Below are positions 12,890 to 47,633 of a stretch of 64,000 nucleotides of DNA, in pieces. The position numbers and the translations under genes were made by a program. The stretch comes from an uncultured Gammaproteobacteria bacterium (GTDB lineage Bacteria; Patescibacteriota; Patescibacteriia; Magasanikbacterales; UBA922): positions 59,637-123,636 of the forward strand of contig CAZMEW010000001.1 of assembly GCA_964565405.1 (NCBI GenBank), in the 5' to 3' direction. The number at the start of each line of letters is the position of its first letter. The first letter of the stretch is position 1. Below the pieces are notes generated by a model that made no database searches, was not told where the DNA came from, and worked only from the letters and a program-made list of their open reading frames with translations.

Positions 12890-12964
12890 TCGGCGGTAGC
12901 TCAGTGGTAGAGCAATTGGCTGTTAACCAATGGGTCCTGGGTTCGAGCCCCAGCCGCCGAGCCA
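12890..12964 (+). tRNA. tRNA-Asn (anticodon GUU), CCA encoded
   Basis: Cloverleaf: acceptor TCGGCGG/CCGCCGA, D-arm GCTCAGTGGTAGAGC, anticodon arm ATTGG-CTGTTAA-CCAAT, T-arm CTGGG-TTCGAGC-CCCAG, then G-CCA. Confidence 0.85.
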
Positions 12965-13033: not shown

Positions 13034-13077
13034 CTATTACAACGATACAATACTTATCCACCTGATAGCATATTGAC

Positions 13078-13386
13078 GTGCATACCCCCAGGGGGGTATA
13101 CTTTTTGTATATGAAATACATGAACGAAGAAAATAAAGCGAAAGTTATCCGCCGACTCAAGCTTCTTGAGGGGCAAGTACGCGGGCTTCAAAAAATGGTC
13201 GAAAACGATACCTACTGTATTGATGTGATCACGCAAACATCAGCAGTAAAACAAGGTTTGTCGAATGTTGAGGACTTACTTTTGGAAAATCACCTGGATC
13301 ACTGCGTGAGTCACCAAATGAAATCCGGACAAGAAGCTAAAGCAAAGGCTGAAATTATTAAGGTGTATAAACTCAAAAGAAAATAG
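13078..13386 (+). CDS. csoR: CsoR/RcnR family copper-sensing transcriptional repressor (probable start at 13111, MKYMNEENK)
   Basis: Four-helix DUF156 pattern with the conserved metal-ligand context (YCIDV...HLDHCVSHQM). About 85% aa identity to the second copy at 45750..46031. Confidence 0.8.
   Translation: MHTPRGVYFLYMKYMNEENKAKVIRRLKLLEGQVRGLQKMVENDTYCIDVITQTSAVKQGLSNVEDLLLENHLDHCVSHQMKSGQEAKAKAEIIKVYKLKRK
13082..13099. promoter_or_regulatory. putative CsoR operator (GC-rich palindrome) overlapping csoR-I start
   Basis: ATACCCCC-AG-GGGGGTAT inverted repeat just upstream of the probable csoR start (ATG 13111). It is preceded by TTGACG (-35-like). Palindromes of the TACCC-N-GGGTA type are known CsoR sites. 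Confidence 0.5.
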
Positions 13387-13400
13387 TTTGATACACTGGT

Positions 13401-15770
13401 TTGATACATTCACCATTCATTACTATACATAGTATGTATACACAAACGTACAAAGTAAAAGGCATGCATTGTGCCTCATGCTCCTCGGTCATCGAGAAGA
13501 CGTTCAAAAAAGTTGAAGGGGTACAGTCAGCAGAGGTCAACTATGGCACTGAGAAAGCAAAAATTTCTTTTGATCCGTCAAAGACGAATCCTCACGATCT
13601 CTCCAAACACATCGAGCCGTTGGGCTATTCACTGGAGGTTCCACTCAGTGCAGGTGAAATGGGTATGTCTCCTGAAGAACATGCGGCTCACTTGGGACTT
13701 AATCAGTCAAAGAAGGAAAAGCTCGCAGAAGTTGCCGACATGAGAATTAAAGTTCTCTCAGCTACTCCTCTCGCAATTTTTGCTGCACTCGTCATGGGTT
13801 GGGACATTCTTGCAGAGTATCGCGCAGTTCCTGCAATGAGTTATACACTCAAGGAGTTCTTCCACCACCTCCTTCCTATTTTTGCGACATACATTCTCTT
13901 TGTTGTAGGCAAGCCGTATCTCCTTGGTTTTTATAGATTTCTCCGATATGGCAAGGCAAATATGGATACGCTCATTGGTATCGGAACTACTGCCGCCTTT
14001 TTATACAGTTTTGCAGTTACGGCTCTCGAGGAAACGCTGAGTCCTTTTATAAATGTTGAGTATCAATACTACGATGTGACGATCGTGGTTATTACTTTTA
14101 TCGCCCTCGGTAAGTATTTGGAAGCTCGATCGAAAATAAAGACGGGTGACGCTATAGAAAAACTTCTTAATTTGCAAGCCAAGACAGCACTGGTTATCCG
14201 CGACGGTAAAGAAGTAGAAATATCGGTCAATGAGGTAAAACATGGCGACCTGCTTATCGTGAAGCCTGGTGCAAAGATTCCCGTAGACGGCGTGATAACA
14301 GACGGCAGTTCTTTTGTTGATGAATCCATGGTCACAGGGGAACCGATGCCAGCACAGAAAAAGATTGGAGACGGTGTTGTATCGGGAACAATCAATACCA
14401 ATGGTTCGTTTACATTCAAAGCAACAAAAGTTGGATCAGAAACACTCCTCGCCCAGATCATCAAGATGGTTGAAGATGCGCAGGGGAGCAAGGCTCCAAT
14501 CCAGGCACTTGCAGACAAAATTTCTTCAGTCTTTGTACCCATTGTTTTGGTTATCGCTTTTCTCACTCTCGGTGCTTGGCTCATTGTTGGGTACCAGTAT
14601 TTAGGTTTCTCTCAAGCGCTGTCATTTGGTCTCGTTTCGTTTGTAGGCATTCTGGTCATTGCGTGTCCGTGTGCCCTCGGTCTTGCTACTCCGACGGCCA
14701 TTATCGTCGGCGTTGGGAAAGGGGCAAAAGAGGGCATTCTGATCAAAGATGCGGCAACGCTCGAAAAACTCCATAAGGTAAATACAGTTGTAGTTGATAA
14801 AACAGGTACCATAACCCGTGGCAAGCCGACGCTCGTCGATATCCAAAATTTTTCAAAGTTAAAAGACGATGAATTCATATCGATTCTGGCGTCGCTTGAA
14901 AAAAAATCAGAACATCCTATTGCTCACGCGATCTTGAACTATGCACGGGACCTGCCTGCGACTCGAGTGAGCTCGCCGAAATCCGGCAGGCAGGGAAAAA
15001 TAACTCTGCAAGAAGTCTCAAATTTTGAAGCAATACAAGGCAAAGGGCTTAAGGGGACAGTGAACGGGACAGAATATTTTATCGGAAACACAAAACTCAT
15101 AAGTCATCTAAAAGTTTCATTCGATACGACAAAATTGAATGTGTTTACTTCACAAGGCAAAACACCGGTCATTCTTGCAACATCGGAGAAAGTGCTTGGT
15201 TTTGTGATGGTTGCGGATGAAATAAAACCGGAATCAATCGAAGCAGTAAAGAATCTCCGCAAACTTGGAATCAACGTGGTTATGCTTACCGGTGATGATC
15301 AAAAAGCCGCTAAGTACATTGGGTCGCTTGTTGGCATTGATGATGTTGTTGCCCACGTGCTACCACATGATAAGCTCGAAAAGATACAAGAGCTTCAATC
15401 ACAAGGTCGAGTGGTGACTATGGCAGGTGACGGAGTAAACGATGCCCCCGCACTCGCACAAGCCGATGTAGGTATTGCGATGGGGACAGGAACTGATGTA
15501 GCGATAGAGTCGGCCGGCATCACGCTTCTTGGTGGAGATATTTCAAAGCTCGTAAAGGCAATCAAGCTCTCAAAAATAACCATGCGAGGGATTAGGCAGA
15601 ATCTCTTTTGGGCGTTTATCTATAACATCATCGGCATTCCTCTTGCTGCCGGAGTTCTGTATCCGGTATTCGGCTGGCTCCTGAATCCTGTTTTTGCCGG
15701 CTTCGCTATGGCAATGTCGAGTGTCTCTGTTGTGTCGAATTCATTACGAATAAAAAGTAAAAAGTTATAG
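13401..15770 (+). CDS. copA: copper-translocating P1B-type ATPase
   Basis: N-terminal HMA ([13 protein letters not shown]), CPC motif ([10 protein letters not shown]), DKTGTIT phosphorylation site and [11 protein letters not shown] hinge. Confidence 0.9.
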
Positions 15771-15799: not shown

Positions 15800-16807
15800 A
15801 TGAAAACATATACATTCCATGTTTCCGGCACGCATTGCGCTTCATGTAAAATTTTCATTGAAGATGTTTTGAATGAACACAGTGGTATACAGAACGCGCG
15901 CGTCGATTTAAAACGAGAGATTGTTGAAATTGAAACCGATAGCGATCAAAGCCCTGAAGTATTGGCCCAAGTCCTGACAGAAAAAATTAAAGCAAATGGA
16001 TACAAGGTATCGGTGGAAAAGTCTATCAGAGAAAAACAAAGTACTGACGTTATTTGGCAAGCTGTACCGATAGGGCTTGCGTTTCTCGCGGTATTCTTTC
16101 TTTTGCAAAAATCGGGAATTCTCAATCTCGGTATTGGCGGACAAACGACCCCGGTCACAAGTTTTATCATTGGTCTTATCGCCTCGGTATCAAGTTGTCT
16201 CGCCATCGTTGGCGGTTTGGTCTTGTCCCTTTCAGCCAAAGTATCTCAGGACACTGTAAGCGATACAAAAACGTTCTTGCTTTTCCATACAGGAAGATTG
16301 GTTAGTTTTGCTGTATTAGGCGGAGTTCTCGGAGCGGTCGGCAGTGCAATCGGTATCAATGTTACTTTTACGACAATTCTGGGAATTTTAGCTTCTGTTG
16401 TAATGCTATTGCTCGGTTTAAATTTAATTGGAGTGCTTGCAAAAAATAAAGTTGCGTTACCTTCAGGAATCTTTAATTTCTTCAGAAAAATGGAGCACAA
16501 GACTCTCACGCCGCTCATCATCGGCTTCGCTACATTTTTCTTGCCGTGCGGGTTTACGCAGTCAATGCAGGTTTCCGCACTAGGAAGCGGATCGTTTATG
16601 TCCGGACTTCTTATCATGTTTGCGTTTGCTCTTGGAACGTTACCAATGCTTCTACTTCTTTCTTTCGGATCCGCATCATTTGCACACGGAAAAAATGCGC
16701 CGCTATTTTTTAAATCGGCAGGAGTGGTTGTAATCGGCCTTGGATTGTTTGCACTTCTCGCTGGGCTTGCTGGGCTCGGAATTATTCCTCCGTTATTTAC
16801 TATATAA
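15800..16807 (+). CDS. HMA-domain fused to DsbD_2/UreH-like polytopic permease (putative Cu/metal transporter)
   Basis: N-terminal GTHCASCK HMA motif followed by 6-7 TM helices with an FLPCGFTQ motif. Paralogue of 42451..43443. Confidence 0.55.
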   Translation: MKTYTFHVSGTHCASCKIFIEDVLNEHSGIQNARVDLKREIVEIETDSDQSPEVLAQVLTEKIKANGYKVSVEKSIREKQSTDVIWQAVPIGLAFLAVFFLLQKSGILNLGIGGQTTPVTSFIIGLIASVSSCLAIVGGLVLSLSAKVSQDTVSDTKTFLLFHTGRLVSFAVLGGVLGAVGSAIGINVTFTTILGILASVVMLLLGLNLIGVLAKNKVALPSGIFNFFRKMEHKTLTPLIIGFATFFLPCGFTQSMQVSALGSGSFMSGLLIMFAFALGTLPMLLLLSFGSASFAHGKNAPLFFKSAGVVVIGLGLFALLAGLAGLGIIPPLFTI

Positions 16808-17210
16808 TCACCGTATGAATAAAACTATCTCAATTATCATCACGATCGTACTTATCATAGGCATTGGCATTGTATTTTTTGGACAATCAAGAGAGGACTC
16901 TGATTCGACTGGTGATCAGTCTGCACAAAATGTTGAAATAAGAGATGGTGTCCAATACGTCACGATAACCGCTCGAGGTGGGTATTCGCCCAAAGTATCT
17001 CCCGCACAAGCAAACATCCCAACCAAGTTGATTGTGAAGACAAATGGCACATACGATTGTTCGGCGGCGTTGGTTATTCGATCAATTGGTTATCAAAAAA
17101 TTCTGCCTCAGACGGGTGAGGAAATTATTGATCTGGGCACTCCAGAGAAGGGTATGCTGCAAGGGCTGTGCAGTATGGGAATGTATAATTTTGTCGTCAA
17201 TTTTAACTAG
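16740..17210 (+). CDS. membrane-anchored cupredoxin-like domain protein (probable start 16815, MNKTIS)
   Basis: N-terminal TM anchor. The C-terminal YDCSAAL...GLCSMGMYNFV region matches the C-terminal domain fused to the permease in the second operon (YTCAQSF...FSCSMGMYTGV). Cys/His/Met ligand spacing is cupredoxin-like. Confidence 0.5.
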   Translation: MDCLHFSLGLLGSELFLRYLLYNHRMNKTISIIITIVLIIGIGIVFFGQSREDSDSTGDQSAQNVEIRDGVQYVTITARGGYSPKVSPAQANIPTKLIVKTNGTYDCSAALVIRSIGYQKILPQTGEEIIDLGTPEKGMLQGLCSMGMYNFVVNFN

Positions 17211-17284
17211 TTACTGGTATTTCCTGGATAGTACGGTTCTAACGTCGTCCAGCCGCCCGAGCCAGATGGCGCAGTGTGCCTACG

Positions 17285-17316
17285 AAAGAGAGCTTCAAAG
17301 CTCTCTTTTAGTTTTA
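17285..17316 (+). terminator. Rho-independent terminator-like hairpin after copper operon I
   Basis: AAAGAGAGCTTcaAAGCTCTCTTT hairpin followed by TAGTTTT. Confidence 0.5.
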
Positions 17317-17415: not shown

Positions 17416-18540
17416 ATGAGACCAAAACAATCCATTGCAGTGTATGTCCCAACCTGGCTCTATCAATTTGATAAAGGTATAACTATCTTTGTGCGAGGTC
17501 TGTATCGTTCGATCAGACAAAGCGGCAAGTATAGACTCCTAAAAATAACACCCTCCATGTGCAGATTTACTTCACGCGAAGAAGCACAGGCATTTGTAAA
17601 AAAACACCACATCCAGCTTGTTATCTACCATAACACCAGAATTCTACCTCAACGTAAATCATGGGAAATAGGACTCGATCATCTTGAATCATGTGTCCCC
17701 TTTCTCAACACAAAAGCAGTACATATTGCTGACGATAAATTTGAGACAAAGCGAATTCTACGTGCAAGGAATCTGCCGGTACTCCCTGATGCTCCAATCA
17801 CCAATCGTACTGAACTTTGGCAATCTATGGAAGAAAATGCGCTTTACGTTGGAAAATTTCATAATTCAGAATCAGGACGAGGAGTAAAATTACTCAAAAG
17901 AACTGCAACTGACTTTTTTGAGTATCTTGACGGATCATGGAGAAAAATTCAGGTACGAGACACAGAAAAGGGGCTCTCAATTTCAGGTAGTCTTGGATTA
18001 TACGCATCCATTGTTATCGGATTATGTATTTTTTCACTTATCCCTCTTATTTTCAACCTATACCCCCTAATTGCTTTATTTGTTATCGCTCTACTAATCA
18101 TCATTATGGGGATCATGCATATCCCCTATAAACTAGACCAAAATTTCACCTATAGTCCACTCATGCTCGAACCTTTCTTTGGTGATGATACTCGCGAATT
18201 CTATTGTTTACGATGTACTGTTATTGGTGATAAGGTCGTTGAATCAGCAAAAAAAACGAACAAAAAAAATGTAACCCCAAACATTTCTCACGGTGGTAAA
18301 GCTACTCATATTACACTTTCGCCAGAACAAATTGATATGGCAATAGCCGCAACCCAGGCGGTCGGCGCAACGTACGCAGGAATTGACCTCCTCTGTTCTC
18401 GTGGCAAGACGGTCATATGTGAAGTTAATGTTGGTCCTATTGGTGTGTACTGTGAACAAACCAAGGTTCCGGTTGGTGAATTACTCGGCGAATATGCGAT
18501 GCATTACTGTGATACATTAGCTTTATCAGGATCTAAATAG
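17416..18540 (+). CDS. RimK-type ATP-grasp protein interrupted by two transmembrane helices
   Basis: The N-terminal half has the Gly-rich ATP-grasp loop (GKFHNSESGRGVKLL). The C-terminal half has ISHGGKATHITLSPEQIDMAIAATQAVGATYAGIDLL...ICEVNVGP (RimK C-terminal signature). Between them are two hydrophobic helices: LGLYASIVIGLCIFSLIPLIF and LYPLIALFVIALLIIIMGIM. Confidence 0.45.
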   Translation: MRPKQSIAVYVPTWLYQFDKGITIFVRGLYRSIRQSGKYRLLKITPSMCRFTSREEAQAFVKKHHIQLVIYHNTRILPQRKSWEIGLDHLESCVPFLNTKAVHIADDKFETKRILRARNLPVLPDAPITNRTELWQSMEENALYVGKFHNSESGRGVKLLKRTATDFFEYLDGSWRKIQVRDTEKGLSISGSLGLYASIVIGLCIFSLIPLIFNLYPLIALFVIALLIIIMGIMHIPYKLDQNFTYSPLMLEPFFGDDTREFYCLRCTVIGDKVVESAKKTNKKNVTPNISHGGKATHITLSPEQIDMAIAATQAVGATYAGIDLLCSRGKTVICEVNVGPIGVYCEQTKVPVGELLGEYAMHYCDTLALSGSK

Positions 18541-41745: not shown

Positions 41746-42228
41746 CTAGCTTATACCTGAAGGATTATTTTTTGCAATACATCTTTTTAAAAAAAGATAC
41801 ACGCTACTTACGACAAAAATGGAAATTATAATACTCCCCAAGATATCTAAAATATGATGTACTCCAGTCAAAATCCTTCCCACTCCTACCAATACTCCTA
41901 AAATAAGTAATAAGATGCCAACTTTTTTATTAACATAATAAACGCTTAATGCAAGAGTAAATACTAACAATGCATGTTCAGAGGGAAATCCATTGTTTGG
42001 GATATGAGAAACAAGTGGTAAAAAATTCCCTTCTACAAAAGGACGTGGGTTGATAATAAATATACTCAAAACCCTGCCAACCATAAAGGCAACTAACAAA
42101 GAAAGTATGGTTAAAAGTATGAATTGTAATCTTACCTTTTTTGGCGAAAACAAAATAAAAAGAAATGTTATTCCTATAACAATAAGATAAAGATATTTAG
42201 CTAGAAAAATAATTATACTTTCTGTCAT
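41746..42228 (-). CDS. PAP2 family membrane phosphatase
   Basis: PAP2 motifs present: INPRPF (KX6RP), GFPSEHA (PSGH) and GRILTGVHHILD (SRX5HX3D). Confidence 0.55.
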   Translation of the reverse strand: MTESIIIFLAKYLYLIVIGITFLFILFSPKKVRLQFILLTILSLLVAFMVGRVLSIFIINPRPFVEGNFLPLVSHIPNNGFPSEHALLVFTLALSVYYVNKKVGILLLILGVLVGVGRILTGVHHILDILGSIIISIFVVSSVYLFLKRCIAKNNPSGIS

Positions 42229-42233
42229 ACATA

Positions 42234-42449
42234 CTATGCCCCAAGCTTTACCTCATACCCTAATTTTTGAATAACTCCAAAAATAATTTCAATTGAAATA
42301 TTACTCTCATCAAACGTCACGTTCGTCTCATTTTTTGCATAACTTGTTTTAGATTCTTTCACACCCATATCTTCAAGCTCACCATCAATATTCATGGCAC
42401 AACTGGTACAATGCATGCCGTTAATTTTTAGTTTTATTGTTTTTTCCAT
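42234..42449 (-). CDS. copZ: copper chaperone CopZ-like HMA protein
   Basis: 71 aa with a GMHCTSCAMNI metal-binding motif. Confidence 0.8.
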   Translation of the reverse strand: MEKTIKLKINGMHCTSCAMNIDGELEDMGVKESKTSYAKNETNVTFDESNISIEIIFGVIQKLGYEVKLGA

Positions 42450-43453: not shown

Positions 43454-45748
43454 TTATAATTTCATGCTTTTAATTCGGAGTGAATTCGTGACGACGGTCA
43501 CGCTTTCAAATGCCATAATCGCCCCAGCGATTGCAGGACTGAGTGTCCACCCAAAGAATGGGTAGAGAATGCCCGCTGCAACCGGAATGCCGAATGAGTT
43601 ATATGCAAATGACCAGGTCAGGTTCTGCCAAATCGTCTTATTAGTTCTTTGTGCCAGATGAATTGCTTCAGCGACTTTTACAATATCGCCCTTCAGAAGC
43701 ACAATGTCAGAGCTTTCGATTGCAATATCTGATCCATCACTCATAGAAATTGCAACATCAGCTTGGGCTAGTGCCGGAGCATCATTTACCCCGTCCCCAA
43801 TCATTGCTACTTTATGACCTTTCTTTTGCAACTCTTTAATGATATTTAGTTTATCTTCGGGCTGTACCCCGGCATAGACTTCATCAATGCCGAGACCTTT
43901 GGCAACGGCCTCACCAGTTGTTTTATTATCTCCTGTTGCCATGACAACTTTTAGTCCGAGTTTTTTGAGTTTGGTAATTTCTGCTTGAGCTTCTATTTTT
44001 ATTTGGTCATGAATTTTAATCAGTGAAAGCACTTCTCGGTCGTCTGAAAGATACAGCTCGCGACCTTTTTCAAAACGTGTACCATCAAAATCTTTTTGTA
44101 CGCTTGCTTCTGACTGTTTAATAACTTCAGCAATAAATGAACGAGAACCTAGATAATACTTTTTACCCTGATACTCTGCAGTCACTCCTTTACCCGCAAC
44201 CTCTACTACATGAGTAATCGGCAGCGCAGGTACCTTATTTTCTTTCATCCACGATGCGACACTTTCAGAAACCGGATGTTTTGAAGATTTGGTGATTGCG
44301 TAAATAAGTGATTGTTTGAACGAGATGTCCTTGAGATCGCACGTGTGATTTTTGTCTTTACAATACACCCCCTCAATTCCAAGTGTATTATGTGTAAGAG
44401 TTCCAGTTTTATCAAAGACAAGTGCCGTAACTTTGGCGAGTTTTTCCAAGCTTTCTGCGTTTTTGATAAGTATCCCTCGTTCAGCTCCTCGGCCAACACC
44501 GGTAATGATTGCGGTAGGAGTAGCAAGCCCGAGCGAGCACGGACATGCGATCACCAAGACAGCCATGGTAGTAGAAATCGCAAATGCTAGAGCGTGGGTT
44601 AATCCAAGAGTTGCGGGTCCGAATATCATCCATGATGCGAAGGTAATAACTGCAAGCCCAAGTACTACATAGACAAATATGCCAGATATTTTATCTGCAA
44701 TACGCTCAATCGGTGCTTTGGAGTTTTGAGCATTTTCAACAATAGAAATAATATGAGCCAAGGCAGTATCTTTCGGGTCTTTCGTAACTTTGATATGAAG
44801 TATTCCCTGAAAATTCTGTGTTCCTGCGAATACCGTATCTTTTGGTCCTTTGTCTACGGGAATTGATTCACCAGTTAAAGTTGCTTCATCAATCGAACTC
44901 GACCCCTCGATAATACTCCCATCAAGTGGAATGCGCTCATGTGGTTTTACAATAATAATATCTCCAATGGTTACTTTTTCAATTGAGACACTCATTTCTT
45001 TTCCCTTACGGATGACGGTTGCCGTTTTACTCGTAAGTCCTGCGAGTTTTTGTAGAGCATCATTTGTCTTTTTCTTTGCCCGATCTTCGAGATGTTGTCC
45101 AAGAGCAATCAGACCAATGACCACGATAACAACATCATAAAAATTAGAGGTAACATCAATATATGGCGCAAGAACGTTTTCAAACGCAGTTACGATAAAC
45201 GAATAGATAAAAGCGACGATAGTTGAAACACCGACCAGGGTATCCATGTTTGCAGTGCCGGTTTTTAGAAATATCCATACTGCTTTGATGTACTTTCTTC
45301 CAATACCAAATAACACAAACGAAGCGAAAATAGGCATCAGATGATGAAATACCTCATAAATGTTTTCTGACATCATGGGAATAATGTTGTTTTGTGAAAG
45401 TACTTCCCACAACATCATCACAAAAGAAAAGAATATCATCGGAATGACGAATTTCATTTCAAACCCCACATTTCCTTTTTCTGAAGCCGAACCTTCATGA
45501 TGATGCTCAGTACTAGTGGACATAGATTTTTCACCTACGTCTTCAAGGGTGTAGCCAAATGGAGAAATCACTCCCGAGAGTTTTACAGTATCCATAGGAG
45601 CTTCAGTAAAATTAACGATTGCTTTTTCTTGATTGAGTTTTACTGAAACAGAGGTGATCCCAGGAACTTTACGGAGTTTTCTTTCTATCAGCGACACACA
45701 ACTTGCGCAAGTCATGCCATTTACTTTATACACGTGCTCTACTGCCAT
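43454..45748 (-). CDS. copA: copper-translocating P1B-type ATPase
   Basis: HMA (GMTCASCVSLIE), CPCSLGLATP, DKTGTLT and [11 protein letters not shown] motifs. Confidence 0.9.
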   Translation of the reverse strand: MAVEHVYKVNGMTCASCVSLIERKLRKVPGITSVSVKLNQEKAIVNFTEAPMDTVKLSGVISPFGYTLEDVGEKSMSTSTEHHHEGSASEKGNVGFEMKFVIPMIFFSFVMMLWEVLSQNNIIPMMSENIYEVFHHLMPIFASFVLFGIGRKYIKAVWIFLKTGTANMDTLVGVSTIVAFIYSFIVTAFENVLAPYIDVTSNFYDVVIVVIGLIALGQHLEDRAKKKTNDALQKLAGLTSKTATVIRKGKEMSVSIEKVTIGDIIIVKPHERIPLDGSIIEGSSSIDEATLTGESIPVDKGPKDTVFAGTQNFQGILHIKVTKDPKDTALAHIISIVENAQNSKAPIERIADKISGIFVYVVLGLAVITFASWMIFGPATLGLTHALAFAISTTMAVLVIACPCSLGLATPTAIITGVGRGAERGILIKNAESLEKLAKVTALVFDKTGTLTHNTLGIEGVYCKDKNHTCDLKDISFKQSLIYAITKSSKHPVSESVASWMKENKVPALPITHVVEVAGKGVTAEYQGKKYYLGSRSFIAEVIKQSEASVQKDFDGTRFEKGRELYLSDDREVLSLIKIHDQIKIEAQAEITKLKKLGLKVVMATGDNKTTGEAVAKGLGIDEVYAGVQPEDKLNIIKELQKKGHKVAMIGDGVNDAPALAQADVAISMSDGSDIAIESSDIVLLKGDIVKVAEAIHLAQRTNKTIWQNLTWSFAYNSFGIPVAAGILYPFFGWTLSPAIAGAIMAFESVTVVTNSLRIKSMKL

Positions 45749-45749
45749 A

Positions 45750-46031
45750 TTACTTTCGTTTTAATTTATACACTTTTAAAACTTCTTCTTGTGCTTTACC
45801 AACCTGCCCTGAAGACATTTGATGATGCACACAATGCCCTAAATGATTTTCAAGGAGCGCATCTTCAACACCTGAAAGACCCTGCTTTACGGCAGATGTT
45901 TGAGTGATTACGTCTATGCAGTAGGTATCATTCTCAATCAACTTTTGTAGTCCACGAACTTGCCCTTCTATGAGTTTGAGACGACGAATTATTTTTGCTT
46001 TACTTTTTTCATTCATGTATTTCATATACAT
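45750..46031 (-). CDS. csoR: CsoR/RcnR family metal-sensing repressor
   Basis: 93 aa, about 85% identical to the first CsoR. Same YCIDV...H.HCVHHQM ligand context. Confidence 0.8.
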   Translation of the reverse strand: MYMKYMNEKSKAKIIRRLKLIEGQVRGLQKLIENDTYCIDVITQTSAVKQGLSGVEDALLENHLGHCVHHQMSSGQVGKAQEEVLKVYKLKRK

Positions 46032-46036
46032 CGTAG

Positions 46037-46055
46037 TATACCCCTAGGGGGTATA
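46037..46055. promoter_or_regulatory. putative CsoR operator palindrome upstream of csoR-II
   Basis: TATACCCC-TA-GGGGGTATA, 6 nt upstream of the csoR-II start codon. Same architecture as 13082..13099. Confidence 0.5.
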
Positions 46056-46361
46056 CTTATCAAAGCCAGGGGTGTGGACAACCCATATTTAACCAAAATC
46101 TAAAAAGTGCTATTATGAATTTACCAGTCCTTTTAACGGTTATTATATTGCAATCCCCCCTCGGGCTGACTCTAAAGGGTCGCTAAATGGGCGTACACTA
46201 CTAAGATTGTCACAATGGACAATTTCATAGAACAATCGCAAGACGAGGAAATATACAAGCTTAGCTTGTTATTTCTTTGATCTGCGATTTTAAAAAATCA
46301 ACTATCAAAAATACCAGGCTTTACTTAAGAGCCTGGTATTTTATTTCTAACTCACCCTGCT

Positions 46362-47633
46362 ATGCCCAAATTAGTTTGGCACACAGAAAAGCGTACGGTT
46401 AATGACCTTATACCTTACGAACAGAATCCTCGGACCTTGAGTGACACACAACTCAAAGGTTTGAAACGCAGTCTCACAAAGTTCAATCTCGTAGAAATTC
46501 CCGCAATTGATCTGGATGGCAAGATTCTTGCTGGTCATCAAAGAATAAAAGTATTGCAACTCTTGGGACGTGGAGATGAAGAAATCGAAGTACGTGTCCC
46601 TAGTCGAAAACTCTCTGAAGAAGAATTTCGAGATTATCTCTTAACTTCCAATCGCTCAGGTGGTTCCTGGGATTGGGAGAAGCTTGCGTCTGACTTTGAT
46701 TTACAGGAAATCCTCATTGCTGGATTTGATGCGGTCGACCTTGCAACTATCTTTGATAGTAACCTAACCATTCACGATGATGAATTCAATGAAGAGAAAG
46801 AATTGAAGAAGGCACAGAATACAAAGATTAAACCCGGAGACATGTTTGCATTAGGCAGACATCGGCTGATTTGTGGCAGTTCACTTGATCTCAGTGTAGT
46901 CAAAAGACTTATAGGTAATGCCCACGTTGATCTTATTAACACCGACACCCCATATAACATAAACCTAAGCTATGACAAAGGTGTTGGGAATCGGAGCAGC
47001 TATGGAGGATCAACAAAAGATAATAAGTCAGATGAGGAGTACCGGGTATTCGTTAAAACCATTATGGAGAATGCATTAGCTGTAGCGAAACCAGATTGTC
47101 ATGCATTCTTCTGGTGTGATGAGCGGTATGTCTGGTTATTCCAAGAACTGTACAAAGAACTCGGACTCGATTCAAAACGCTTATGTATCTGGATCAAGGA
47201 TAATGCGTCTCCCACACCGAACGTCGCATTTAACAAGGTAACTGAGTTTGCAGTATACGGAACCCGAGGAAGACCGTTTCTCGCGAAAGGTGTAACTAGC
47301 TACAATGAGATTCAGAACAAAGAAATGGGAACAGGTAATCAACTGACTGAAGACATATTGGATCAACTGAACATTTGGCTCATTAAACGACTGCCTGGTA
47401 ATCAATATTCACATCCCACTCAGAAGCCCCCTACTCTGCATGAAAAGGCTCTACGTCGTTGTAGTAAGCCAGGAGACATTGTACTCGATCTGACTGCTGG
47501 ATCAGGAAGTATTCTTTCAGCATGTGAACAGCTTAAACGAACCGCGTATCTCTGTGAGCTTGAACCCGTATTTTGTCAGCTCATAATAAACAGATTCAAA
47601 GCATTGACTAATCTTAATGTACAAAAGATATGA
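46362..47633 (+). CDS. ParB-like nuclease domain fused to beta-class N6A/N4C DNA methyltransferase
   Basis: N-terminal ParB/Srx-like region (LVEIPAIDLDGKILAGHQRIKV), then motif IV DTPYN followed by motif I LDLTAGSGS. The IV-before-I order indicates the beta class. Confidence 0.7.
   Translation: MPKLVWHTEKRTVNDLIPYEQNPRTLSDTQLKGLKRSLTKFNLVEIPAIDLDGKILAGHQRIKVLQLLGRGDEEIEVRVPSRKLSEEEFRDYLLTSNRSGGSWDWEKLASDFDLQEILIAGFDAVDLATIFDSNLTIHDDEFNEEKELKKAQNTKIKPGDMFALGRHRLICGSSLDLSVVKRLIGNAHVDLINTDTPYNINLSYDKGVGNRSSYGGSTKDNKSDEEYRVFVKTIMENALAVAKPDCHAFFWCDERYVWLFQELYKELGLDSKRLCIWIKDNASPTPNVAFNKVTEFAVYGTRGRPFLAKGVTSYNEIQNKEMGTGNQLTEDILDQLNIWLIKRLPGNQYSHPTQKPPTLHEKALRRCSKPGDIVLDLTAGSGSILSACEQLKRTAYLCELEPVFCQLIINRFKALTNLNVQKI

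Follow-up and report, generated by a model that had tools for sequence, protein, structure and literature searches.

What is the function of a polytopic permease and a cupredoxin-like protein that are encoded directly behind the copper ATPase CopA? The question is raised by positions 15800-17210 of a 64,000-nucleotide (nt) stretch of DNA, here called the window, from an uncultured bacterium of the Patescibacteriota (Magasanikbacterales, UBA922; assembly GCA_964565405.1, contig CAZMEW010000001.1, positions 59,637 to 123,636). The segment covers the last two genes of a four-gene operon (operon 1), which consists of csoR, copA, a gene for a permease composed of an HMA domain, an extra transmembrane helix (TM0) and a DsbD_2 domain, and a gene for a membrane-anchored Cupredoxin_1 protein. 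A second, diverged copper operon (operon 2) is present in the window at 46063-42234 on the minus strand; there the permease is fused to the cupredoxin domain and HMA is encoded by its own gene. Both in the window copies and in related loci, the HMA domain, the permease and the CupA-like cupredoxin domain are obligatorily linked. Our leading but tentative reading is that these three parts form a thiolate relay that passes Cu(I) outward across the membrane beside CopA.

Composition of the two copper operons

The original prediction stated that each CopA is followed by a permease with an F(L/I)PCG(F/I)TQ(S/G) motif, and that a cupredoxin-like domain with YxC...CSMGMY occurs once as a separate membrane-anchored protein and once fused to the permease. 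Both statements were confirmed. The permease motif, located in transmembrane helix 4 (TM4), reads FFLPCGFTQS in operon 1 and VFIPCGITQG in operon 2, and the cupredoxin motifs are YDC...CSMGMY and YTC...CSMGMY, in domains that both match Pfam Cupredoxin_1. A degenerate DNA pattern for CSMGMY gave exactly two matches in the 64 kb, against 0.03 expected. Three further features went beyond that prediction: the homology of the cupredoxin domain to CupA, the role of HMA as an obligatory third component of both copies, and the CsoR-type operators in front of both operons.

The HMA-permease of operon 1 starts with the HMA domain (GTHCASC, Cys13/Cys16; 46.1 bits, cut-off 24.8), which is followed by TM0 and a six-helix DsbD_2 core (108.7 bits, cut-off 24.9) with Cys133 in TM1 and Pro-Cys250-Gly in TM4. 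The protein ends five residues past TM6, exactly where the fusion form of operon 2 runs into its cupredoxin domain. For the cupredoxin gene, the ATG at 16815 (MNKTISIII...) is the most likely start instead of the TTG at 16740 given in the list of open reading frames (ORFs), because the latter would overlap the permease gene. With this start, 7 nt past the permease stop, the gaps between the four genes of operon 1 are 14, 29 and 7 nt. The N-terminus of the cupredoxin protein resembles a signal anchor, with MNK followed by some 20 hydrophobic residues. In the fusion protein of operon 2, the DsbD_2 part scored 116.5 bits and the Cupredoxin_1 part 51.4 bits, with Cys21 and Pro-Cys149-Gly in the membrane core. 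Both window permeases match the DsbD_2 profile (PF13386, LysE clan) over its full length (profile positions 2-199), and both HMA copies, with GTHCASC and GMHCTSC, exceed the HMA (PF00403) cut-off of 24.8 bits.

Identity between the operons is 44% for CopA, 30% for the permease, 31% for the cupredoxin domain and 81% for CsoR. A recent duplication was rejected in view of the first three values; judged by their sequences, the two operons are old paralogs.

The cupredoxin domain has a CupA-type ligand set

In a phmmer search with the window domains against all sequences in the PDB, the top match was pneumococcal CupA (2MRY/4F2E), followed by the N-terminal domain of pneumococcal CopA (4F2F), which is of the cupredoxin type. 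Identity to these proteins was 20-31%. For the 131-amino acid (aa) protein of operon 1, the match to CupA had an E-value of 1.2e-5. The predicted ligands, Cys82, Cys119, Met121 and Met123 in the free protein and Cys280, Cys318, Met320 and Met322 in the C-terminal domain of the fusion, all aligned with the CupA ligands, and CxMxM was kept in 240 out of 240 homologs that carry the cupredoxin domain. On the basis of this alignment, the ligand set is predicted to be Cys2/Met2 of the CupA type. The AlphaFold model of the fusion protein (predicted local distance difference test, pLDDT, 77) contains six membrane helices and a beta domain, for which the best fold matches were a Bacillus anthracis Cupredoxin_1 protein, Brucella FtrB and nitrosocyanin. 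In a structure comparison, the cupredoxin domain matched Cu(I)-CupA. The outcome that the original prediction had named as damaging, a beta sandwich that binds no metal, was thus not what the comparisons suggest, since both the profile match and the fold place the domain with CupA and its aligned ligands.

Of the His/Cys/Met ligand geometry that had been considered, the Cys and Met part stood and the His part did not, as neither window domain contains any His. For the same reason a type-1 (blue), CuA or red-copper site was rejected, the His2-Cys-Met set being absent.

In eleven related loci of the Candidate Phyla Radiation (CPR; L012, L016, L027, L031, L033, L034, L049, L053, L054, L055 and L058), csoR and copA are separated by an additional small gene, which lies about 100-400 nt from copA on its upstream side. 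Its product is 41% identical to pneumococcal CupA and shares with it the signature RKDPSxCLEE...CGMNMxHGK; a membrane anchor followed by Lys-rich residues predicts that its domain is cytoplasmic. We refer to this CupA-close protein as class I and to the outward-facing, permease-linked form as class II. The window contains only class II. Sequence comparison indicates that class II is a distinct branch and that close relatives of CupA (class I) occur well outside the streptococci.

Membrane domain and topology

The AlphaFold model of the HMA-permease shows a ferredoxin-like fold (residues 2-77) and seven membrane helices, of which TM1 and TM4 are broken at the Cys residues. Pro-Cys-Gly of TM4 was present in 360 out of 360 homologs, covering three gene architectures, and the TM1 Cys motif as searched was found in 345 of the 360, always in a conserved ....C....GG context; the 120 HMA-permease homologs were collected at 82-100% identity. 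One Cys in TM1, one in TM4, and a six-helix core with both termini predicted outside correspond to the layout of DsbD and CcdA. With the DsbD_TM profile (PF02683), the fusion protein scored 26.6 bits against a cut-off of 27.1 and the HMA-permease gave no match, whereas clostridial relatives exceeded the cut-off (31-37 bits). Solved CcdA (5vkv) was hit with an E-value of 5.4 only, and it was matched neither in a profile search nor in a search with the membrane domain only. The double-proline context Pro-Cys-x-x-Pro that is typical for both Cys residues of DsbD and CcdA was not found in the window permeases: TM1 reads SVSSCLAIVGG or GGLTCLAVQGG, without Pro, and TM4 reads (L/I)PCG(F/T)TQ, without the second Pro.

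The orientation of the core follows from the charge distribution over its loops. In 47 fusion proteins, the mean number of Lys and Arg residues was 4.3, 6.4 and 2.5 in loops 1-2, 3-4 and 5-6, and 0, 0.2 and 0.2 in the N-terminus and loops 2-3 and 4-5, respectively. The pattern was the same in 104 HMA-permease proteins, and it indicates that the six-helix core has its N- and C-termini outside. Where HMA is fused, it comes first, without signal peptide, and a Lys/Arg-rich linker and the extra helix TM0 follow. TM0 was seen both in the HMA-permease model (residues 83-104, seven helices in total) and in the clostridial single-chain form. Seven helices place HMA and the cupredoxin domain on opposite faces of the membrane, whatever the absolute orientation. 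As HMA has no signal peptide and the linker before TM0 is rich in Lys and Arg, we infer from helix parity and the positive-inside rule that HMA is cytoplasmic and that the CupA-like domain is located on the outer face, in agreement with the periplasm-facing module that was originally proposed.

The three parts co-occur across several phyla

Co-occurrence was examined in two sets of CPR loci: 80 species-representative genomes with a permease-cupredoxin fusion, mostly Patescibacteria/CPR, and 80 metagenome loci with an HMA-permease gene. In the fusion set, a gene for a 71-aa type HMA protein was located 0-282 nt 3' of the fusion gene in all 76 loci with enough sequence; CxxC was present in 78 of the 79 HMA genes recovered beside the fusion, and the inspected examples had no hydrophobic leader. 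In the HMA-permease set, a cupredoxin gene directly followed the HMA-permease gene in 62 out of 62 loci. In 46 of 68 fusion loci, copA immediately preceded the fusion gene in the same orientation. In the HMA-permease set, copA was the adjacent upstream gene in 32 of 47 loci, and CsoR was encoded upstream in 36 of 41 cases. The association with copper genes that the original prediction had put forward for testing is therefore very strong, in these 160 CPR loci as well as in Clostridia, Actinomycetota, Deinococcota and Chloroflexota.

Three architectures were found: HMA-permease with separate cupredoxin, permease-cupredoxin with separate HMA, and a single HMA-permease-cupredoxin chain. The last occurs in Clostridia as a polypeptide of 480-720 aa with one or two HMA domains, TM0, DsbD_2 and one or two CxMxM cupredoxin domains. 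Two such cupredoxin domains were present in 71 of 120 proteins of the clostridial set, and both proteins that were inspected for it (P0264 and P0342) have a Cys-rich tail. The flanks of the clostridial gene were inspected in two genomes, Clostridium thermosuccinogenes and Sporobacter termitidis (L177 5299-10337 and L178 5338-11151), in both of which the HMA-DsbD_2-cupredoxin gene comes after a gene for a Cys-rich membrane protein of the FtrD-like/DUF2318 type and before a gene for a P-type ATPase. Among 1.84 billion cluster representatives (50% identity), 3952 relatives were found at E <= 0.001 and 355 at E <= 1e-30.

Outside the CPR, annotations show the permease-cupredoxin + HMA pair on plasmids from several groups. 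It lies near merB and a MerR gene on a Deinococcus plasmid, follows a P-type ATPase gene on a Mycolicibacterium plasmid (L085, where a PAP2 gene is also near the module), and occurs with a YHS-domain gene in Candidatus Chlorohelix. In Streptomyces it adjoins genes for CcdA, TlpA, ResB and CcsB. In Tsukamurella the order is MerR-type regulator, P-type ATPase, permease-cupredoxin + HMA pair, merA and multicopper oxidase; the merA gene on the T. tyrosinosolvens plasmid (L082 5998-8879) is short (474 aa) and apparently lacks the N-terminal HMA domain. Some members of the module might handle mercury. An adjacent ATPase gene is missing in Deinococcus, in Chlorohelix and in about one third of the CPR loci.

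Genes for PAP2, FtrD-like proteins and multicopper oxidases were considered as conserved partners and rejected, as they are not kept across the CPR loci. A PAP2 match was found in only 2 of 80 related loci, both times not next to the HMA gene. A multicopper-oxidase-like gene is present in 3 and 4 loci of the two 80-locus sets, in one case divergent from csoR (L087 995-2218, minus strand). Its product could oxidize exported Cu(I).

A proposed outward Cu(I) relay and its alternatives

We propose that the HMA-permease and the CupA-like protein form one membrane machine, an accessory Cu(I) route alongside CopA. Cu(I) would be passed by ligand exchange from the CxxC motif of the cytoplasmic HMA to the mid-membrane Cys pair and on to the external Cys2/Met2 site, with the external CupA-like domain as acceptor and sink. 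Oxidation or loss of Cu(I) outside could pull the export, or proton antiport could drive it, in the manner of other LysE-clan metal exporters. To this outward relay we assign a probability of about 40%. Cu(I) is the favored cargo because a metallochaperone domain, and not a thioredoxin, is the constant partner in the cytoplasm, because the external domain is a homolog of a Cu(I) chaperone, because LysE-clan relatives move metal ions (CadD, RcnA/NicO, MntP and UreH), and because actinomycete islands supply CcdA and TlpA separately. To our knowledge, no redox-carrier role exists for an HMA metal-binding domain. The outward direction is favored because copper should de-repress the operon. We are slightly more hesitant about the broader notion that a DsbD-type fold was co-opted for a metal ion instead of electrons, giving a widespread, ATP-independent chaperone-to-chaperone conduit for Cu(I) from HMA to a CupA-type domain.

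Several points weigh against the outward relay. Its cargo and its direction are both what we infer. The TM Cys pair sits at the positions of the redox-active Cys residues of DsbD and CcdA, and electron transfer would fit this anatomy equally well. A passive Cu(I) carrier would tend toward import under copper stress unless it were coupled, and CopA already exports Cu(I), so that a second route lacks a clear need. The model of the HMA-permease is of moderate quality (pLDDT 67), and the membrane domain has no sequence match among solved structures. For the free cupredoxin protein of operon 1, Lys+Arg values of 1.0 and 1.4 on the two sides of the anchor leave the orientation ambiguous; we place it outside because of its homology to the fused form.

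Electrons as the cargo are doubtful, but they are the alternative to be taken most seriously. The DsbD_2 core would then pass reducing equivalents from the cytoplasm through the TM1/TM4 Cys pair to the external CupA-like Cys pair, either keeping an external Cu(I) trap reduced in a copper-rich oxidizing milieu or serving a domain that acts as a catalytic cupric reductase. This agrees with the DsbD_2 core itself, with the weaker DsbD_TM match that rises above the cut-off in clostridial members, and with the single Cys in each of TM1 and TM4, as in CcdA and DsbD. A beta-sandwich with a Cys pair is likewise found in DsbD itself, as its periplasmic N-terminal domain, DsbD-alpha. The FtrD-like (DUF2318) gene just upstream in Clostridia points the same way, Ftr systems being known to pair FtrD with a Cupredoxin_1 protein in redox chemistry, and pneumococcal CupA reduces Cu(II) via its S1 cysteines in vitro (PMC5646241, PMC7558416). 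However, the invariable cytoplasmic partner is HMA and not a thioredoxin-fold protein, the CPR operons contain no thioredoxin-like gene (neither window operon has one), and the PCxxP context is missing in TM1 and incomplete in TM4. Moreover, bona fide CcdA and TlpA genes lie beside the module in actinomycete islands, where reducing power may come separately.

If copper is moved, it could also be moved inward, as in Mer or CopCD systems, with the external domain capturing copper (cf. MerP, CopC), the permease Cys pair importing it (cf. MerT, CopD), and cytoplasmic HMA handing it to CopA or presenting it to CsoR, which would clear the surface or speed up sensing. We consider this unlikely. The layout indeed mirrors MerP-MerT-NmerA, with an external dithiol domain, membrane Cys residues and a cytoplasmic HMA; merA directly follows the pair on the Tsukamurella plasmid, and merB and a MerR gene are near it on the Deinococcus plasmid. 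The HMA domains score with MerP and MerTP models, below their cut-offs, CopC/CopD importers are also encoded in copper-resistance operons, and the thermodynamics of a passive thiolate relay favor import. On the other hand, import under lifted CsoR repression followed by re-export would bring no net gain to a single-membrane cell, the CPR operons encode no cytoplasmic copper-consuming enzyme, and the neighbor in most loci is CopA, not MerA. Still somewhat less probable is that the CupA-like domain only accepts Cu(I) at the exit of CopA, in the way of CusF in E. coli, with the permease mainly a scaffold that holds the CopZ-like HMA and the acceptor at the pump, and with structural TM Cys residues. 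Adjacent copA genes in most loci would suit such an arrangement, and direct transfer from CopA to CusF is known, as cited in PMC5552934. The conservation of two TM Cys residues and their motifs across phyla argues instead for a functional site, and the pair also exists without adjacent ATPase, as noted above. Finally, relatives are labeled "sulfite exporter TauE/SafE family protein" in source annotations (other names are "heavy metal transporter" and "UreH domain-containing"), and some CsoR-family regulators are described as controlling sulfur genes, which would make the permease an exporter of sulfite or sulfur anions under a CstR-like persulfide sensor. This is very improbable and already contradicted: the window permeases have no Pfam TauE match at E <= 0.1 and reach the cut-off of no NCBIfam model, the regulator has the copper-sensing Cys-His-Cys set, and it is CopA, HMA and a CupA-type Cu(I) site that accompany the permease.

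Regulation and gene neighborhood

Both csoR genes are preceded by the best promoter-like site of their region, with a GC-rich palindrome between or over the hexamers (Table 1). The site of operon 1 matches at 10 of 12 positions. The pattern TACCC-N3-8-GGGTA occurs only twice in the 64-kb window, each time at a csoR start; of 32 related operon-1-type loci, 27 have it in this place. We take this type of palindrome to be the CsoR operator, by analogy with Firmicute CsoR sites. Both regulators belong to the Trns_repr_metal family and have the Cys-His-Cys spacing of copper-sensing CsoR. In operon 1, the ATG at 13111 (MKYMNE...) is a likelier csoR start than the GTG at 13078 that opens the ORF, because it lies 3' of the promoter, and copA likely starts with the ATG at 13434. 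The two csoR genes are 81% identical and their operators near-identical, while the rest of both operons is 30-44% identical; the csoR copies may have been homogenized, or one may have been recently replaced by the other.

A terminator-like hairpin with a T-rich tail downstream of the cupredoxin gene would end operon 1. It was found by reading the sequence and is absent from the list of a pattern scan. In operon 2, a PAP2 phosphatase gene begins 5 nt past the HMA gene and is probably co-transcribed with the operon; its top NCBIfam match, undecaprenyl-diphosphate phosphatase, is below the cut-off.

Table 1. Coordinates of the features of operon 1 and operon 2 in the window.
Feature	Position	Strand	Remarks
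Promoter-like site, operon 1	13073..13102	+	-35 TTGACG, 18 nt, -10 TATACT; encloses operator palindrome ATACCCCCAGGGGGGTAT
Putative CsoR-type operator, operon 1	13082-13099		Palindrome ATACCCCCAGGGGGGTAT; sequence read
csoR copy 1	13111..13386	+	Pfam Trns_repr_metal 88 bits; Cys47, His72, Cys76
copA copy 1, P1B-type Cu(I) ATPase with N-terminal HMA	13401..15770	+	Pfam E1-E2_ATPase, Hydrolase, HMA; CPC at residue 422
HMA-permease gene, 335 aa	15800..16807	+	Pfam HMA residues 5-61, DsbD_2 121-316
Signal-anchored CupA-like cupredoxin protein (class II), 131 aa	16815..17210	+	Pfam Cupredoxin_1 28.5 bits (cut-off 27)
Terminator-like hairpin	17284..17309	+	11-bp stem, T-rich tail; RNA fold -15.3 kcal/mol, z = -2.7
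PAP2 phosphatase gene	41746..42228	-	Pfam PAP2; begins 5 nt past HMA gene of operon 2
Free CopZ-like HMA protein (GMHCTSC), 71 aa, no signal peptide	42234..42449	-	Pfam HMA 39.1 bits
DsbD_2-cupredoxin fusion gene, 330 aa	42451..43443	-	Pfam DsbD_2 9-215, Cupredoxin_1 242-327
copA copy 2, HMA N-terminal domain	43454..45748	-	44% identical to copy 1
csoR copy 2	45750..46031	-	81% identical to copy 1; Cys38, His63, Cys67
Putative CsoR-type operator, operon 2	46056-46036	-	GTATACCCCCTAGGGGTATAC
Promoter-like site, operon 2	46035..46063	-	-35 TTGATA, 17 nt, -10 TATACT; encloses GTATACCCCCTAGGGGTATAC

The last membrane helix of CopA, near the C-terminus, contains MAMSS in copy 1 and MAFES in copy 2; Cu(I) ATPases usually have the signature M-x-x-S-S. 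A tRNA-Asn (GTT) gene (12890-12964, plus strand) lies directly 5' of the operon 1 promoter. The product of the gene after operon 1 (17416-18540, plus strand) is a RimK-like ATP-grasp protein (Pfam RimK 53 bits); its middle part contains a hydrophobic segment about 60 residues long, which is uncommon in the RimK-like family. Divergent from csoR of operon 2 is a 423-aa ORF (46362-47633, plus strand) that by eye resembles a ParB-like nuclease joined to a DNA methyltransferase, a likeness that suggests that operon 2 may adjoin mobile or defense-related DNA.

Relation to known systems

Reviews describe CupA as a membrane-anchored, cytoplasm-facing protein that is confined to a few streptococci (PMC7558416, PMC9470648) and whose cytoplasmic targets are CopY and the N-terminal domain of CopA. 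The class II domain of the window differs from it: it is predicted to face outward, it is always paired with or fused to a DsbD_2 permease and HMA, and it accompanies CopA proteins whose N-terminal domain is HMA, whereas that of pneumococcal CopA is of the cupredoxin type. Delivery as by CupA, from a cytoplasm-facing site to a cupredoxin-type CopA N-terminal domain, thus does not match the window, which has HMA-type CopA proteins and a topology that points outside. Cupredoxin_1 proteins were also found in a survey of Rhizobiales, without the Cys/Met motif (PMC5552934).

The permease shares with DsbD and CcdA a related membrane-domain superfamily, the six-helix N-out/C-out core, the Cys residues in TM1 and TM4, and Cys-bearing domains on both sides of the membrane. 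In contrast to those systems, the cytoplasmic partner is HMA instead of thioredoxin, the external one is a cupredoxin instead of a thioredoxin-fold domain, and the proline context of the Cys residues differs. The resemblance to MerP-MerT-NmerA, a soft metal handled via thiol ligand exchange by an external dithiol domain, membrane Cys residues and a cytoplasmic HMA, is functional and does not imply membership. The membrane part is not homologous to MerT, HMA is present inside only, and the context is copper (CsoR, CopA). With MerT, MerP and MerTP models only the HMA parts scored (27-52 bits against cut-offs of 92-180), and the membrane part gave no match. The direction of the proposed relay is probably opposite to that of the Mer chain. 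An extracytoplasmic beta-sandwich or Cupredoxin_1 domain that is paired with or fused to a polytopic permease is also found in CopC/CopD (YcnJ), EfeO/EfeU and FtrB/FtrC, and the best fold matches of the module's domain include FtrB and the cupredoxin domain of EfeO. These systems have other permease families and other ligand chemistry, serve uptake of iron or copper, and have no cytoplasmic HMA.

A computational study from 2016 listed COG2836 (HMA, DsbD_2, DUF2318) in the predicted CsoR regulon of gut Firmicutes and suggested a chaperone role (PMC4938975). Its members belong to the same protein family, with the same predicted regulator, as the window module; the cupredoxin part, the CupA ligands, the topology and the three-part linkage are not in that listing. 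It was the only mention of the permease family that we found, and no functional study of the module was found in a literature search with little reach into subscription journals. The original prediction had called the module an uncharacterised copper partner outside the textbook cop operon. The position outside that operon holds as far as the literature could be searched; "uncharacterised" fits the module, but not the family of its cupredoxin domain, which is a known copper chaperone family. The parts thus come from known families, and their assembly, the outward CupA-type site and its breadth appear to be undescribed.

Implications for copper handling

The module touches on the handling of copper at the outer face of single-membrane bacteria, on the acceptor of Cu(I) from CopA, and on routes for Cu(I) other than P-type ATPases. 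The ligand set of CupA, reviewed as an oddity of a few streptococci, appears in thousands of proteins, and here the CupA-like domain always comes with a Cys-bearing permease and HMA, in most cases also with CopA. For this large family, the name "sulfite exporter TauE/SafE" in the databases is misleading and would be corrected. Because the unit is small and modular and hosts such as Clostridium thermosuccinogenes, Streptomyces, Tsukamurella and Deinococcus are culturable, its function is directly testable. If a DsbD-type fold has indeed been co-opted as a Cu(I) conduit, the module, which occurs in CPR bacteria, Clostridia, Actinomycetota, Deinococcota and Chloroflexota, would represent a previously unrecognized kind of copper transporter, and a CupA site would for the first time be seen at work outside the cytoplasm.

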